Positions 1 through 6,662 of a stretch of 9,706 bases of DNA are shown here, piece after piece (position 1 is the first letter of the stretch; each line of letters starts with the position of its first letter). Location of the stretch: IMG/VR virus record IMGVR_UViG_2703718673_000017; one strand, given 5' to 3'. Origin of the DNA: a virus (taxonomy: Duplodnaviria > Heunggongvirae > Uroviricota > Caudoviricetes). Below the pieces are notes generated by a model. The model searched no databases. It saw nothing but the letters and a program-made list of their open reading frames with translations, and was not told the DNA's origin. The position numbers and the translations under genes were made by a program.

Positions 1-60
1 CGTCCCCACCGCTGACGTGGTGTATGACACACCCGTTGTGATTTTTTCCATCTGGTACAT
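1..60 (-). CDS. S: Holin, 5' portion only (class II S21/Stx-phage-like); gene continues past the window start
   Basis: Minus-strand ATG at 60..58 and a second in-frame ATG at 51..49 give MYQMEKITTGVSYTTSAVGT..., which I recall as matching the N-terminus of S21/933W-type pinholins with the Met1/Met4 dual start. SD GGGAGA (72..67) lies 6 nt upstream of the first ATG. Position downstream of nanS fits a lysis cassette. Truncated by the window edge. Confidence 0.7.
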   Translation of the reverse strand, partial: MYQMEKITTGVSYTTSAVGT

Positions 61-135
61 GCCCCGTCTCCCGCAATCCGGAAGCTCGCAACAACAGGAG
101 GGGCATCAGCTCACACCGACAGCCCCTGCGTATGG

Positions 136-405
136 TTACATCATCATTTCGCCGCCAGGCTGAGGCTCACTGCTACCGTCAGGCTGAGACACAACGCCAT
201 CTGAAACAGCACTGTCACCCGCGCCGTCTTCAGGCTCAGGAGCAGCCGGTCCCCCCAGCAGCTCATCCAGAATGGCATCCACTTCAGCATCAAGACGCGC
301 CTCAAGATTCTGGCGGAGTTGCTGTTTCAGTGCGCTTCTGACTTCTTCAGAGCGCAGGACGTCCTTCACTGCTTCAGCAGTGACCAGAGATTTTATTTCT
401 GACAT
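136..405 (-). CDS. Hypothetical protein, 89 aa, helical N-terminus and acidic Pro/Gly/Asp-rich low-complexity tail
   Basis: Internal ATG (405..403) of the track ORF 136..561. The N-terminal extension in the track overlaps the 60-aa gene in another frame and looks non-protein-like. Weak SD (GAGA). No family recognised. Confidence 0.45.
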   Translation of the reverse strand: MSEIKSLVTAEAVKDVLRSEEVRSALKQQLRQNLEARLDAEVDAILDELLGGPAAPEPEDGAGDSAVSDGVVSQPDGSSEPQPGGEMMM

Positions 406-442
406 GGGATTTTCTCGTTGAAAGGTGTTGTTAAGAAAGTTG

Positions 443-625
443 CTACGAAATGAGAGGCTCTTCGGGTTTTGTTCCGGCTGACTGGCTGGCGCTGATTTTT
501 TCCGCCGCCGCGGCATCAATCTTTTTGCGTATATAGTTCCGGATAACCTTATACCCGCCACTTACCAGATATAACGTGCACACCACCGTGCAGAAATACA
601 ATAAAATAAGCTGTACAAATCTCAT
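443..625 (-). CDS. Small membrane protein, 60 aa, one N-terminal TM helix and a basic C-terminal tail
   Basis: Track ORF. Strong SD GGGAGGG (636..630) 4 nt upstream of ATG 625..623. Hydrophobic segment FVQLILLYFCTVVCTLYLV. Lies between nanS and the holin. Confidence 0.55.
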   Translation of the reverse strand: MRFVQLILLYFCTVVCTLYLVSGGYKVIRNYIRKKIDAAAAEKISASQSAGTKPEEPLIS

Positions 626-719
626 TATCCCTCCCGGTTATTGATATGGTGTTGACATCGTTAATACCTGTTGGTTAAAAAAGTGTCCTGCATGTTTTGC
701 TTTGGATATAACGACATTT

Positions 720-767
720 GCCGCCGGTTCTGGCTCCTTGTTTTCCCTGCCCCGGCGGCCTTTTTTT
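720..767 (+). terminator. Plus-strand terminator-like hairpin with T7 run
   Basis: Perfect 8-bp GC-rich inverted repeat gccgccgg (720-727) / ccggcggc (752-759) with a 24-nt loop, followed by c + T7 (761-767). The T-run is on the plus strand only; on the minus strand it is preceded by A7. Sits just 3' of the nanS stop codon (773-775). Confidence 0.35.
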
Positions 768-772
768 CCTGC

Positions 773-2710
773 TTACGGGTTATTCACTTCCACTGTTATA
801 CTTTCAATCAGCACCGGATATGTCGCACCGCTAGTGATATCGGTCACGCGCAATTTGTCTGCCGTAAACGTGCCGACCGGTGACTGTGACAGCATGAACG
901 GCGTCCCGTCCTTACCATCAATGACCGGCGTCACCTCAATACTGTTGTTACCGGCAAAACGGAAGCCCAGCGTATGCCATTCGTTATCAAATGCGCCGAA
1001 TGACCCCAGCTTCGTGTTCTGACCAGCATTTCCCTTGTGGTACATCACATTAAGGTCTGTGGCATCGCTCTGTACGTAAAACGACGCCAGCAGGTTATGA
1101 CCGGCATTACCTTCCAGTGTGACGCCCTGAGGCAGTGAAGAAACCGGCCAGTACAGCGCCAGTGCGTACTGATTAGCTGTCAGTGTGCCATCAACTTTAA
1201 AACGACAACTGATAAGCCCGCCCTTCTCCAGCAGGTCTGCGCCATTACCGGCATCATGCTGCATAAACCACGAGGAACTTCCTGTCTGTTTGGTCCACCT
1301 CAGCGCCTTACCTCCTGCAGCACCTGCATCATCAACTACCAATGCACGCCCTCCTTCAGCTCCCCATCCCTGCGGATTCAGTAAACCACCTGACTCTGTT
1401 GCACGGTAATAAAGCAGCGTTGTCACTGATTTCCCGTCCGTTGACGGTGTTGATGGTGTGTCCGGTGACGGCTTCTCATCCGGCGGCATCACAACCTGTT
1501 CCCCACCCACCAGTTCAGCCGTCCGTCCTGCATGGAGAAGAATCGCTGAGGCAAGACGGTCAGAAATAATCCCCCTGCGTGCCCATGAGCTGAAATGGCT
1601 CGCACGGTCTGCTGACGTCCAGTTTGCCGACGTCCGGGAGGCCGCACCGTAATATCCTGATGCCGGAATATCCGGGTCTTCTTCCGGTTTGTTCGTCGGG
1701 ACATTTGCTCCGTTCTCATCGGTCATGAACGGCACAAAGTGAATATTCTTTTCCGTTTTGTTTTTGTAACTGCCGTACACCGTCTGGTAAGTGGATTCGC
1801 TCTTCTGCTTCCAGAAATAAGTTGTGTCTCCACATATCCAGGGAACACCGTCAGCAGAACCACCAGCGCACTGTCCCACCATATCTGCAAGGTCCGTACG
1901 ATATTGTTCCACTACTTCTGTAAAACGGGCTGTGTGATTTGCTGGCGTTCCGTCAAAGTCAAATTCCCCCTGCATCCACACCACGGCAAGCAGCACATTT
2001 TTCGGGTTCTTTGCCAGCGCGGCTTTTGTACGACCGATGAGATCCTTATACAGCGGCCTGCCCACACCCCAGCGGGTAGAACTCTCTGAGGCACCGGTCA
2101 CGTCACTGTATGTTCCATCTGCCCCGGTGGTGAAAGCTGAACCACCACGGCAGCACGGAACCAGAAGAATACCCGCATTCGCCGGTATAAACGGCAGCAG
2201 CTTTTTGGCAATATGCAGCCCCTGCCCCACGGTTCCGTACTGACCTTTCGACAGGTCAGCTTTCGGATGGTTAAGACGGCTCATGTCCTGTACATCATGC
2301 AGACAGTGGTCTGCCGGAATAATGTCGTTATATTTACAGGGAGCGCCATCCGGCGTCACTGTGCTGCGACGAGCCAGTTGCTTTATACGCGGGTCAGGAC
2401 GGTCATATGTCTGCGGCAGAGGAAGCCCCTCACCGTAAGCCATGCCGTTCGACTGCCCGGCCAGTGGAATAACGTAGTAATAATCTGGCTCCGTGGTGAC
2501 CACTCCCGGATAGCCACCATCCCCCGTGCCGGGCACAACCACTGGCGTGGTCACATCCCCCTCCGCGGCAATCGCCTGCATCAGGGTATAAGGGGTTATG
2601 GCCACAGGACTACCAAACGGCTGCCAGCCCTCTTTCAGTTTGTGTGTCAGCTTTTCCGCAAGATCTGACGGCGACGCCGCCCTGACAACATCATAATGTT
2701 TAATCGACAT
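773..2710 (-). CDS. nanS: Prophage-encoded sialate (9-O-acetyl-N-acetylneuraminic acid) O-acetylesterase NanS-p, 645 aa
   Basis: Track ORF with ATG start and SD GGGAGA 6 nt upstream. N-terminus MSIKHYDVVRAASPSDLAEKLTHKLKEGWQPFGSPVAITPYT is what I recall for EHEC/Stx-prophage NanS-p (DUF1737 N-domain). Followed by an SGNH/SASA-like esterase core, a Pro/Thr/Ser-rich linker (PPDEKPSPDTPSTPSTDGKS) and a C-terminal beta-rich domain. Sits between Q and the lysis genes, as in Stx-type prophages. Confidence 0.9.
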   Translation of the reverse strand: MSIKHYDVVRAASPSDLAEKLTHKLKEGWQPFGSPVAITPYTLMQAIAAEGDVTTPVVVPGTGDGGYPGVVTTEPDYYYVIPLAGQSNGMAYGEGLPLPQTYDRPDPRIKQLARRSTVTPDGAPCKYNDIIPADHCLHDVQDMSRLNHPKADLSKGQYGTVGQGLHIAKKLLPFIPANAGILLVPCCRGGSAFTTGADGTYSDVTGASESSTRWGVGRPLYKDLIGRTKAALAKNPKNVLLAVVWMQGEFDFDGTPANHTARFTEVVEQYRTDLADMVGQCAGGSADGVPWICGDTTYFWKQKSESTYQTVYGSYKNKTEKNIHFVPFMTDENGANVPTNKPEEDPDIPASGYYGAASRTSANWTSADRASHFSSWARRGIISDRLASAILLHAGRTAELVGGEQVVMPPDEKPSPDTPSTPSTDGKSVTTLLYYRATESGGLLNPQGWGAEGGRALVVDDAGAAGGKALRWTKQTGSSSWFMQHDAGNGADLLEKGGLISCRFKVDGTLTANQYALALYWPVSSLPQGVTLEGNAGHNLLASFYVQSDATDLNVMYHKGNAGQNTKLGSFGAFDNEWHTLGFRFAGNNSIEVTPVIDGKDGTPFMLSQSPVGTFTADKLRVTDITSGATYPVLIESITVEVNNP

Positions 2711-2796
2711 CGAATTTCTCCCGTGTACAGGAACAGAGTTAAAAAGCCGGAACCGGAATCAAATCACAGGATGACCATCTGCCAGTGGCTGGTCGT

Positions 2797-2823
2797 AAAA
2801 AAAAGGCCGCGCCATGCGCAGCC
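2797..2823 (-). terminator. Rho-independent terminator (minus strand) 87 nt upstream of nanS
   Basis: Minus-strand RNA forms an 8-bp stem (ggctgcgc / gcgcggcc, one mismatch) with a 3-nt loop, followed by U8 (plus A-run 2797-2804). Confidence 0.5.
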
Positions 2824-3024
2824 GGAAATAAAGGGATAACGATGATAGTTTGAGAAAAACAGAAATAACACTTTTGTGGCAAAGCATGGTGCCGGGTGCC
2901 TCCCGGTGAATTCAGTACCAGCACCTGAATCCGCGATTATCCCATATACCTGGTTGCTGATTGCCCCTCCGCACAGGGGGATTCGCCATGCAGTAGTATT
3001 TTTAATAAACAGTAAACAAAAAAA

Positions 3025-3422
3025 TCAAGCATTATGCAGGCTGTTTCTTTTTATCACCGGCCACAGCAATACCACAATGCCGCAGACCAGCCCCCCATCC
3101 GCCAGCACCGACATGATTCTNNNNNNNNNNNNNNNNNNNNNNNNNNNNNNNNNNNNNNNNNNNNNNNNNNNNNNNNNNNNNNNNNNNNNNNNNNNNNNNN
3201 NNNNNNNNNNNNNNNNNNNNNNNNNNNNNNNNNNNNNNNNNNNNNNNNNNNNNNNNNNNTAATTTCTGACGTAAACGCGGACAGCGCTGGCTGATTACGC
3301 AGTACCTGTTCGATCTTCGCTTTCTAGGAAGCCTCACATTCACCATCTGCACAGGCCACCAGGTATGCGGCGTTAATCACCGCCTGTGCCAGATCGCGTT
3401 TCTCAAACTTTCCTTTTTCCGG
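3025..3422 (-). pseudogene. Degraded cargo gene at the Q-proximal moron site: TerB-like fragment with in-frame amber, split by the N gap, plus a C-terminal hydrophobic fragment
   Basis: Minus frame 3422..3327 encodes PEKGKFEKRDLAQAVINAAYLVACADGECEAS, then in-frame TAG (3326..3324), then KAKIEQVLRNQPALSAFTSEI up to the gap. No ATG in this frame after the upstream TAA (3425..3423). The A..A.ADG...E.AKIE pattern resembles TerB-family domains. After the gap, 3120..3025 encodes ...IMSVLADGGLVCGIVVLLWPVIKRNSLHNA*. The frame relationship across the gap cannot be determined. Confidence 0.3.
3121..3259. other. Assembly gap (139 N)
   Basis: Run of n characters. Track ORFs spanning it (translated as X) are artefacts. 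Confidence 0.99.
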
Positions 3423-3525
3423 TTAACGTGACACACCAATAACTCTTGTCGAAAAAGCCAGCAAGCAGAAAGACCGGTATTCACAACCACCAGCGCGTTT
3501 ACTGTACTGGCGTGATTTCAGTCAT

Positions 3526-3548
3526 AAAAAAACCCGCCTGGCGACGGG
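3526..3548 (-). terminator. tR'-like rho-independent terminator downstream of the Q-dependent late promoter
   Basis: Minus-strand RNA acccgucgccaggcggguuuuuuu: 6-bp stem (one G.U), 4-nt loop, U7. Located about 65 nt downstream of the putative PR' start, consistent with a short 6S-like late transcript. Confidence 0.6.
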
Positions 3549-3596
3549 TGTAAAAAATCTTCTAACGTCAGGCATAAAACGCCCATCGTTAGGGCA

Positions 3597-3624
3597 AATT
3601 TACCACAGATTCGGGAAAAATCAA
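3597..3624 (-). promoter_or_regulatory. Putative late promoter PR' (and presumably the qut region) immediately downstream of Q
   Basis: Minus strand: -35 TTGATT (3624..3619), 16-nt spacer, extended -10 TGgTAAATT (3605..3597). Position right after the Q stop and before the tR'-like terminator matches lambdoid late-operon organisation. Confidence 0.45.
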
Positions 3625-3629
3625 CAAAG

Positions 3630-4451
3630 CTATCTGGTCACCTTTTTCAGTTGTTGTTCTGCCCATGCTTCTTCAATATCAAACTGCACCACCAGCGTAT
3701 CGTAAAAACGTTTAACTGTTTTTTTCCATGTATCAAGAGATATGGCATCGGTTACATTACATATGGCATTAAATGCCTCCGTTGAAGGTAATCTTTCATA
3801 GCCACGACCACCACAACGCTGGCAGTCTCTGATAACAGGCATACCACGTTTTACCGACTCTTCACGATGAATGGCAACACCGCGCCCACGAAAATCTTTA
3901 CAGGCGGTGGAAACCTCCCCCTTCCCTCCACACTCCGGACAGGCAACTTTTACCACCTCCCTGACTTTTTTCCATTCCTCCCAGTAAGACGGATACACGC
4001 CTTTTGTGCACTTTGCCCACACTGGCGGCTTACCATCCGGATACTGGATCTTGTTTGTAAAAACCTCGCTTTCAATAAATTTTTTTCCGTGACAACAGGG
4101 GCACTGTTTTTTGCTCGCCGCGCTACGGGCATAATCTTCAAACGCATACGAAGCCATAATACGCATCACTGCCGGTTTTATTTCTGCCGGGAGTTTTCTT
4201 AACGCCGCCACGCGATCACACCGACTGAGTGCATATTCTGTCAGCAATTCTGTTGCCCGCTCTCTGTCATTCATACTAATGCCCATTTTCCCAAGGAACG
4301 CAGAAAACCCCATCTCAGCCCAATTCTGTGTCATGCCCTGCGCGGCCATCACATCAGTGATACTCAGCGTATCTTTCGACGTTGAGGCCGATGCATCAGT
4401 CAGGCCGGGGGATTTTGGGGAGTAGTATTTCGGTAAATCTTCCAGTTTCAT
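3630..4451 (-). CDS. Q: Late-gene antitermination protein Q (Phage_antitermQ family, QuuQ/Q82-like), 273 aa
   Basis: Track ORF. ATG overlaps the rusA stop (ATGA at 4451..4448). Motifs YSPKSP, DVMAAQGM, FYDTLVVQ and Cys pairs (CPCCHGKK ... CPECGGKG ... CQRCGGRG) resemble Qin-type Q proteins as I recall them. Position immediately 3' of rusA and 5' of PR'/tR' is diagnostic. Confidence 0.8.
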   Translation of the reverse strand: MKLEDLPKYYSPKSPGLTDASASTSKDTLSITDVMAAQGMTQNWAEMGFSAFLGKMGISMNDRERATELLTEYALSRCDRVAALRKLPAEIKPAVMRIMASYAFEDYARSAASKKQCPCCHGKKFIESEVFTNKIQYPDGKPPVWAKCTKGVYPSYWEEWKKVREVVKVACPECGGKGEVSTACKDFRGRGVAIHREESVKRGMPVIRDCQRCGGRGYERLPSTEAFNAICNVTDAISLDTWKKTVKRFYDTLVVQFDIEEAWAEQQLKKVTR

Positions 4452-4822
4452 TTTTTGACCTGCCCTTCAAGCATTATGGGGTAAATCTTCACCCCCAGAC
4501 GTCCACCAGATACTGGCTGAGCACGAACGATATTGATTTCATCAAACTGCTCATCGTCCATTAGCAACCCCGCATGCGTCAGCGCATCCAGCGGCGCTTT
4601 CAGAATATTGTCCAGGTCACGGCGGCGCTTATCCGGTGGCTCGGCAATAATCTTTATCGCCAGCCTTCCGGACAGGCTTAATTTCAGCCGCTGCTGGCGA
4701 ACAATAAGCGCCACAGCCCGGCGATAACGCTCACCGGCTTTTGATACAAAATATGTGCTGCCACGACGTCGCCAGTAGGTGTTCACCGTCGGCGGGTAAG
4801 GTAAAACCAAATCTATGAGCAT
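4448..4822 (-). CDS. rusA: Holliday junction resolvase RusA, 124 aa
   Basis: LPYPPTVNTYW and PDKRRRDLDN match RusA signatures (E. coli RusA has LPWPPSNNRYY and PDRRRRDLDN). SD AGAGGTGA 4 nt upstream of ATG. Classic nin-region position just upstream of Q. Confidence 0.85.
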   Translation of the reverse strand: MLIDLVLPYPPTVNTYWRRRGSTYFVSKAGERYRRAVALIVRQQRLKLSLSGRLAIKIIAEPPDKRRRDLDNILKAPLDALTHAGLLMDDEQFDEINIVRAQPVSGGRLGVKIYPIMLEGQVKK

Positions 4823-4834
4823 CAGTCACCTCTT

Positions 4835-6331: not shown

Positions 6332-6487
6332 TTACTCCTCAGGTTCGTAAGCTGTGAAGACAGCGACCTCCGTCTGGCCGGTTCGGATTCGTACCTCGCA
6401 GAGGTCTTTCCTCGTTACCAGTGCCGTCACTATGACGGTTAAACAGATGACGATCAGGGCGATTAACATCGCCTTTTGCTGCTTCAT
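6332..6487 (-). CDS. hok: Hok-family type I toxin (HokC/Gef, HokD/RelF-like), 51 aa
   Basis: MKQQKAMLIALIVICLTVIVTALVTRKDLCEVRIRTGQTEVAVFTAYEPEE matches the Hok/Gef family (compare Gef MKQHKAMIVALIVICITAVVAALVTRKDLCEVHIRTGQTEVAVFTAYESE). SD AAGGAG 8 nt upstream of ATG 6487..6485. Confidence 0.9.
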   Translation of the reverse strand: MKQQKAMLIALIVICLTVIVTALVTRKDLCEVRIRTGQTEVAVFTAYEPEE

Positions 6488-6544
6488 AACCTGCTTCTCC
6501 TTGCCTTTCGGCGCGTAAGAGGCTAACCTACGTTTGTGAAGCAT
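6332..6544 (-). CDS. mok: Mok-like in-frame N-terminally extended reading frame overlapping hok (70 aa)
   Basis: Track ORF with ATG 6544..6542, extending hok by 19 codons in the same frame, as in chromosomal mokC/hokC. GAGG lies 9 nt upstream. Confidence 0.6.
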   Translation of the reverse strand: MLHKRRLASYAPKGKEKQVMKQQKAMLIALIVICLTVIVTALVTRKDLCEVRIRTGQTEVAVFTAYEPEE

Positions 6545-6610
6545 AGATTGGGCCTCAGATTAATGTTAAGCGTCTTGCAGGACGCGTAATGTTAACTGGG
6601 GCTTTTCTCT
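6540..6610 (+). ncRNA. sok: Putative Sok-like antisense RNA (boundaries approximate)
   Basis: Plus strand, antisense to the mok translation-initiation region. Candidate promoters: TTGTGA (6534-6539) with ATTAAT (6559-6564), or TTGCCT (6501-6506) with TAACCT (6524-6529). A 7-bp closing stem (6552-6558 with 6596-6602) is followed by a T-rich run 6603-6610. Ends are inferred by analogy to R1 hok/sok and are not verified. Confidence 0.35.
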
Positions 6611-6662
6611 GTCTGCCTTACGGTGGCATGCCCGAGGCAGACAGCCTCAAGCACCCGCAGCA

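Follow-up and report, generated by a model that had tools for sequence, protein, structure and literature searches.

The interval between the late antiterminator gene Q and the sialate esterase gene nanS was found to carry, in minus-strand order, Q, a PR' promoter with its pause element, the tR' terminator, a spacer, a dead tciA gene, tciB, an STnc100-family sRNA gene, a terminator and nanS. The window, which is the whole stretch of DNA analyzed, was the entire draft contig LGBJ01000096.1 (9706 bp) of assembly GCA_001281725.1 in reverse complement, and all of its genes lie on the minus strand. Positions 1..4830 differed from prophage Sp6 of strain Sakai at 2 positions (99.9% identity), and the region 2500..3900 outside the scaffold gap was 100% identical to Sp6 in Sakai, EDL933 and many other closed genomes. 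The Sp6 counterpart in Sakai was NC_002695.2 1554170-1555247.

Q (4451..3630, minus strand), directly upstream of the interval, encodes a 273-aa late antiterminator matching Pfam Antiterm (PF03589) with 164 bits, and is annotated "antitermination protein Q" in both Sakai and EDL933. The downstream border of the slot is formed by a nanS-type sialate O-acetylesterase gene (2710..773, minus strand; 645 aa), whose product contains the Pfam domains DUF1737, SASA and DUF6645 and is annotated in Sakai as a 9-O-acetyl-N-acetylneuraminic acid deacetylase. The Hfq-bound sRNA EcOnc33 (approximately 71 nt by northern) has been listed in Sp6 at Sakai 1557089-1557136, minus strand (Tree et al., PMC4104026). 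It would map at approximately 822..869 (plus strand), antisense to the 3' end of nanS, if the Sakai record versions share coordinates; an Rfam scan of this site at approximately 822..869 gave no match. Open reading frames at 2876..3262 (plus), 3032..3352 (minus) and 3034..3294 (plus) were rejected as artefacts of translating through the run of N.

Upstream of approximately 4830, from the DUF968 gene onward, the window diverged from Sp6 by approximately 10-14% and resembled the early region of a different O157 prophage, one that has a 229-aa PF06323-type Q. The full arrangement of the window was absent from complete genomes, the best coverage being 82%, and the breakpoint near 4830 reflects either a genuine mosaic or a chimeric joining of sequences at a repeat. 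When a gap-free copy of the contig was sought by exact-protein search, the same contig alone was returned, and the other loci had a different Q module. The early region also contained a hok/sok type I toxin-antitoxin module at 6482..6656 (minus strand), with a sok Rfam score of 114.9 bits and an adjoining HOK_GEF reading frame at 6332..6544 (minus strand).

Late promoter, leader RNA and terminators

A PR'-like late promoter was located at 3624..3585 on the minus strand by alignment with lambda PR' over GGTAAATTTG..AACGATGGG. It consists of a -35 element, TTGATT, at 3624..3619, an extended -10 element, TGgTAAATT, at 3605..3597, and an AACGAT pause/qut-type element at 3590..3585. In lambda, an AACGAT-type element causes the promoter-proximal pause at which Q loads. 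A sigma-70 consensus scan (9/12) called no promoter here, so that PR' was recognised solely by the lambda alignment. The terminator scan placed the tR' intrinsic terminator at 3549..3525 (minus strand), with a stem at 3549..3532 followed by T7. Transcription from PR' (from approximately 3590) to the T-run of tR' corresponds to a leader RNA of approximately 65 nt, the predicted fold of which was -29.9 kcal/mol (z -3.5) and was equalled in stability by none of 200 shuffled sequences. Compensating changes were present in the tR' stem of phage Evi. Q, PR', the qut/pause element and tR', the components of a lambdoid late control module, were all found in the window.

A further intrinsic terminator was found upstream of nanS at 2823..2797 (minus strand), with a stem at 2823..2805 of 8 pairs (7 of them G-C) and then T8. 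It was kept in all four aligned loci, those of Sp6, 933W, O145 and JLK-2012. Terminator-like sites in the region numbered 4, compared to 1.4 +/- 1.2 in shuffled sequences. Weak Rfam matches to asX2, suhB and anti-hemB were rejected as terminator look-alikes, since they fell far under the gathering scores.

The tciA pseudogene and the scaffold gap

The visible part of tciA occupies 3410..3260 on the minus strand. Its TerB-like frame opens past a TAA at 3425..3423, contains no ATG, GTG or TTG before an in-frame TAG at 3326..3324, and continues into the gap. The first-pass annotation, made from the sequence alone, had described this frame without a start codon and with its TAG, and the description was borne out. 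A reconstruction of tciA, in which the stop was masked and Sakai sequence supplied the gap, matched Pfam TerB (PF05099) over residues 13-125 with 45.2 bits (E 1.3e-11; cut-off 24.4), indicating that the resemblance to TerB is genuine. The reconstructed protein was 94-95% identical to intact homologues of 142-143 aa and contained no further stops or frameshifts; the intact homologue from JLK-2012 scored 232 bits against phrog_632. The reading frame itself is incomplete, as approximately 17 N-terminal codons are absent and the TAG is internal, and tciA is a pseudogene rather than a functional TerB-family member. In EDL933, PGAP lists it as a pseudogene of the TerB family with the remark "internal stop", and flags it as a pseudogene in O145 RM9872 and O111 11128 as well. 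PADLOC assigned neither TciA nor TciB to a defence system.

The first lesion is a deletion. The post-tR' spacer at 3524..3412 (minus strand) is common to Stx2a phages, and bases 1-221 of the interval were 99.1% identical to Stx2_EH1910. In Sp6 this spacer reaches the ribosome-binding region of a 65-aa ORF and then passes directly into tciA at approximately codon 18, through the junction GGAAAG at 3413..3408 (minus strand). The loss at the junction amounts to approximately 1.9 kb (1926 bp when measured on O25:H4 CU568-3), and AAAAAG is present at both parental sites. As judged from these alignments, a deletion between the AAAAAG microhomologies was shown to have taken a small HTH gene, an N6/N4 DNA methyltransferase gene, three tRNAs, and the ribosome-binding site, start codon and first approximately 17 codons of tciA. 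The start of tciA is therefore missing because of this deletion of approximately 1.9 kb.

The second lesion, a GAG to TAG change, is independent of the deletion. The intact tciA genes of JLK-2012, Evi, CU568-3 and Xuzhou21 have GAG at the position of the TAG, and the TAG allele also occurs in the full-length tciA of O111 11128 and of a further prophage locus, L013. The allele is thus present in different prophages, while the Xuzhou21 counterpart has GAG, and it therefore recurs or moves between prophages. In the one prophage shared by two strains, the nonsense site reads TAG in L013 and GAG in Xuzhou21 (14375-14803) with a protein that is otherwise identical, and this suggests that prophage copies underwent gene conversion or that the mutation recurred. 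An early A-run of tciA was one base longer in O111 11128 (1454-1500) and Xuzhou21 (14375-14420) than in JLK-2012; the longer run shifts the ATG out of frame, and gene callers use a TTG 4 nt downstream, giving 142 aa.

Both lesions were counted across 5426 complete genomes of E. coli, of which 803 carried the tciA segment, at a median of 4 and a maximum of 8 sites per genome. A 41-mer containing the TAG was found exactly in 577 complete-genome records and the GAG version in 159 genomes, while a 47-mer across the deletion junction was present in 502 of the 5426 genomes (491 records exact). Neither lesion is a sequencing error; both are fixed alleles, shared by hundreds of closed genomes.

It is conceivable, but unlikely, that the doubly damaged gene has been kept in approximately 500 genomes by selection for losing TciA, the methylase and the tRNAs. 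The remnant would then act as untranslated leader sequence, bringing tciB and the variant STnc100 sRNA under the direct control of PR' and Q, and the recurrence of the TAG would be selected gene conversion. If this were true, the locus would be a rewired cargo slot and not debris.

Partial expression of the remnant, through a 48-aa C-terminal fragment or through read-through of the stop codon, with the truncated allele as a selected new form, appears very unlikely. The remnant retains high identity to intact proteins with no additional lesions in its frame, the truncated allele is widespread, and a family of 48-aa proteins, phrog_3920, exists. However, the N-terminal part has neither a start codon nor a ribosome-binding site, and high identity is expected of a young pseudogene in a clonal lineage. 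The presence of the TAG in full-length copies (O111 11128, L013), with GAG in the same prophage elsewhere, is better fitted by recent mutation or gene conversion than by selection. The Sakai record annotates just the last 48 codons of tciA, with a GTG start, as "TciA/TerB-like protein" (ECs_5711); this is the piece after the TAG (Sakai locus 3725-3871) and it falls within the gap of the window. Fragments of this kind have their own PHROG, the phrog_3920 just mentioned ("unknown function"), which is most simply explained as, and is probably, a by-product of gene-caller annotation.

The pseudogene frame enters a run of N at 3121..3259 that is exactly 139 long, the length given in the first-pass annotation. 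The contig comes from a draft assembly, and the run is therefore a scaffold gap. The gap flanks were 298 bp apart in 25 of 25 listed closed genomes with 100% identity, in each of which a 1401-base query (2500..3900) covered 1560 bp. In these closed genomes the 298-bp stretch comprised 230 nt of the 3' end of tciA, including its stop, and the first 72 nt (24 codons) of tciB, with a 4-nt overlap. In the strain itself the gap is written as 139 N, compared to 298 bp in the references. Short-read assembly breaks at this point because the tciA repeat occurs at several places in the same genome.

The first-pass annotation had allowed that the true content of the locus might be hidden by the gap. That real additional cargo (tRNAs, a toxin or another moron) is concealed there, in a locus that is not decayed, is highly improbable. 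Such a reading would be compatible with the unreadable content of the gap, with the difference between the stated 139 and the reference distance of 298, and with the mosaic nature of the contig, which is found end to end in no complete genome (coverage at most 82%). In contrast, both flanks are 100% Sp6 up to the gap and belong to the same two genes, whose register is kept across the 25 closed genomes listed; an insertion would need to fall within tciA or tciB, and the tciA lesions stand outside the gap. The last alternative, an intact tciA whose TAG and missing start arose through sequencing or assembly error, could draw on the draft gap close by and on the GAG in some copies of tciA from other prophages, but it is already refuted by the census, in which the identical TAG context and the junction recur across many laboratories and platforms. 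The PGAP pseudogene flags in EDL933, O145 RM9872 and O111 11128 also speak against it. The comparison with the identical locus in closed genomes, a kind of check that had been proposed, revealed no intact TerB gene in continuous frame.

tciB and the STnc100-family sRNA gene

The window itself shows the last 31 codons of tciB (3120..3025, minus strand), and the hydrophobic C-terminal fragment ending at 3025 that had been noted earlier is this part of a DUF3927 protein. On the Sakai sequence, tciB matched PF13064 with 60.5 bits and phrog_1470 with 102.6 bits; its product is 55 aa long with two hydrophobic segments. The GTG start of tciB overlaps the tciA stop (GTGA), and a GGAG lies 8 nt upstream. 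tciB was intact in every closed copy inspected (EDL933, Sakai, O145 RM9872 and O111 11128) and also in phage Evi, the protein being WP_000216629.1 in EDL933 and O145. Phage records name the pair tciA/tciB, and the corresponding PHROGs, phrog_632 and phrog_1470, are in the moron category. The names originate in phage P1 by homology alone (PMC9603915).

Downstream of tciB, a short variant of an STnc100-family sRNA gene was found at 3017..2851 (minus strand). It matched Rfam RF02076 over the full model span 1-206 with 94 bits (E 1e-19), compared to a gathering score of 47. The fold of the sRNA region alone was no better than that of shuffled sequences (z -0.75); the support for the sRNA therefore comes from the Rfam covariance model. 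No promoter for the sRNA could be identified. An STnc100 gene followed the cargo coding sequence in all of the related loci scanned (six others), including 933W, where it lies 75 nt after stx2B and scores 208 bits.

The Sp6 copy is without its own 3' terminator hairpin: a 24-nt segment of the model is reduced to 2 nt in the covariance-model alignment, and the sequence is deleted compared to 933W and O145. The segment with the STnc100 terminator and the anti-sRNA is also missing in JLK-2012 and O111. The terminator at 2823..2797 is the next one after the sRNA and would end the Sp6 transcript, which probably extends to 2797. Convergent anti-sRNAs were found in related loci, namely AsxR in 933W, AgvB in O145 RM9872 and an AsxR-like sRNA in CU568-3, while a covariance-model search for AsxR and AgvB (RF02703/RF02702) across 2600..3700 of the window gave no match even at E <= 1. 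CU568-3 (2609-3356) carries two tandem STnc100 copies together with the convergent AsxR-like sRNA between tciB and nanS, evidence that the slot's sRNA portion grows in some loci and contracts in others.

The stx2-linked copy of this family is the Hfq-bound sRNA EcOnc27/sRNA103, located 3' of stx2B, and a convergent sRNA pair is conserved between the moron coding sequence and the downstream ORF (PMC4104026, PMC7873438, PMC12711010). According to a 2026 preprint, STnc100 and the PasD sRNAs are related (bioRxiv 10.64898/2026.05.13.724894). Sp6 was left out of the prophages with a convergent sRNA pair by Tree et al., whose supplementary table lists no Hfq-bound sRNA in Sp6 at Sakai 1,554,9xx-1,555,1xx (PMC4104026). 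In EDL933, STnc100_4 at 1,641,323 of the old sequence was reported with 4486 RNA-seq reads and a positive northern (PMC5331693), with probes that cross-react among the 11 STnc100 copies in EDL933. A link between STnc100_4 and the Sp6 copy through a constant coordinate offset was rejected, as the offsets between the old and new EDL933 sequences were 2655 bp at stx2 and 1218 bp at the Sp6-type locus. Because these offsets differ, the link is drawn from the new assembly, in which the Sp6-type sRNA was the sole STnc100 match in the 7.5 kb around the STnc100_4 position. On balance, the Sp6 STnc100 copy is likely to be active.

A partly decayed cargo slot compared with those of related phages

Taken as a whole, the interval is best read, with a probability of approximately 0.9, as the cargo (moron) slot in the late operon of a lambdoid E. 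coli O157:H7 prophage of the Sp6 type, partly decayed and broken by a draft-assembly gap. The first-pass annotation had recognised the stretch between tR' and nanS as the moron site of lambdoid phages, had suggested a decayed cargo gene and had placed a terminator at 2797..2823, and each of these points held up. Its further statement that neither tRNAs nor toxin ORFs are visible was upheld by ARAGORN, which detected no tRNA either in the window or in the Sakai locus, where there is no gap, by an Rfam search of the window, which found none either, and by the annotations of the identical closed loci, in which no stx ORF appears; no Stx-converting cargo was recognised. The view that the site holds only degraded remnants was too narrow, as the slot also contains the leader with PR', pause element and tR', an STnc100 sRNA gene at twice the gathering score, and tciB.

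In a lysogen, PR' would yield just the leader of approximately 65 nt, stopping at tR'. After induction, the Q-modified polymerase would be expected to read past both tR' and the terminator at 2797..2823, transcribing the tciA remnant, tciB and the sRNA on the way, and to continue into nanS and the lysis genes. TciA would not be produced, and a GGAG-N8-GTG site of its own may still permit translation of TciB. Of the cargo, the sRNA would most plausibly be the active element in the lysogen, like its homologue EcOnc27/sRNA103, which follows stx2B. Reference O157 genomes already carry annotation for this locus, and both the sRNA family and the slot architecture are published, so that the case matters little past bookkeeping. 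The run of N and the TAG are not to be taken as hidden cargo or as errors.

The window resembles the Sp6 loci of Sakai and EDL933 in having Q, PR'/tR', a truncated tciA with the TAG, tciB, a short STnc100, a terminator and nanS. It differs from Sakai Sp6 in the 139 N that stand for 298 bp and in the early region of a different prophage upstream of approximately 4830. The tciA/tciB pairs of P1, JLK-2012, Evi and 434 are organized as in Sp6, with a TerB-family gene followed by an overlapping gene for a DUF3927 membrane protein, whereas the Sp6 tciA is truncated at the 5' end and contains a nonsense codon. The Sp6 sRNA shares with EcOnc27/sRNA103 and PasD its membership of the RF02076 family and its location between the cargo coding sequence and nanS. 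In contrast to EcOnc27/sRNA103, it scores 94 rather than 208 bits, its 3' hairpin is replaced, and it has neither a convergent partner nor an Hfq-CRAC call.

The slot is more complete in three relatives. Stx2_EH1910 has the same Q type and the near-identical 221-nt leader, after which come orf65 (a 65-aa HTH-like product), a DNA methylase gene, three tRNAs and stx2AB. O25:H4 CU568-3 carries orf65, the methylase gene, three tRNAs, intact tciAB, STnc100 and nanS, and phage Evi has an Sp6-type Q, tR', tRNAs and intact tciAB. ARAGORN placed a middle tRNA-Lys(ttt) between Met/Ile2-type and Arg tRNAs in O111 11128 (1106-1181) and Evi (1801-1877); it scored 37 bits in Rfam in Evi, had no Rfam match in O111, where PGAP leaves it unannotated, and may be a degenerating tRNA.

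The Stx2 phages 933W and Stx2_EH1910 share with the Sp6 slot the order Q, PR', tR', (methylase), tRNAs, a cargo pair of coding sequences, STnc100, terminator and nanS. They differ from it in that Sp6 has tciAB in place of stx2AB, has lost the methylase gene and tRNAs by deletion, and is without AsxR and the STnc100 sRNA's own terminator. The position of tciAB is exactly that of stxAB in phages sharing its Q and leader, which illustrates the swapping of cargo between the tRNAs and the STnc100 sRNA, and Sp6 represents the stepwise erosion of such a cargo slot.
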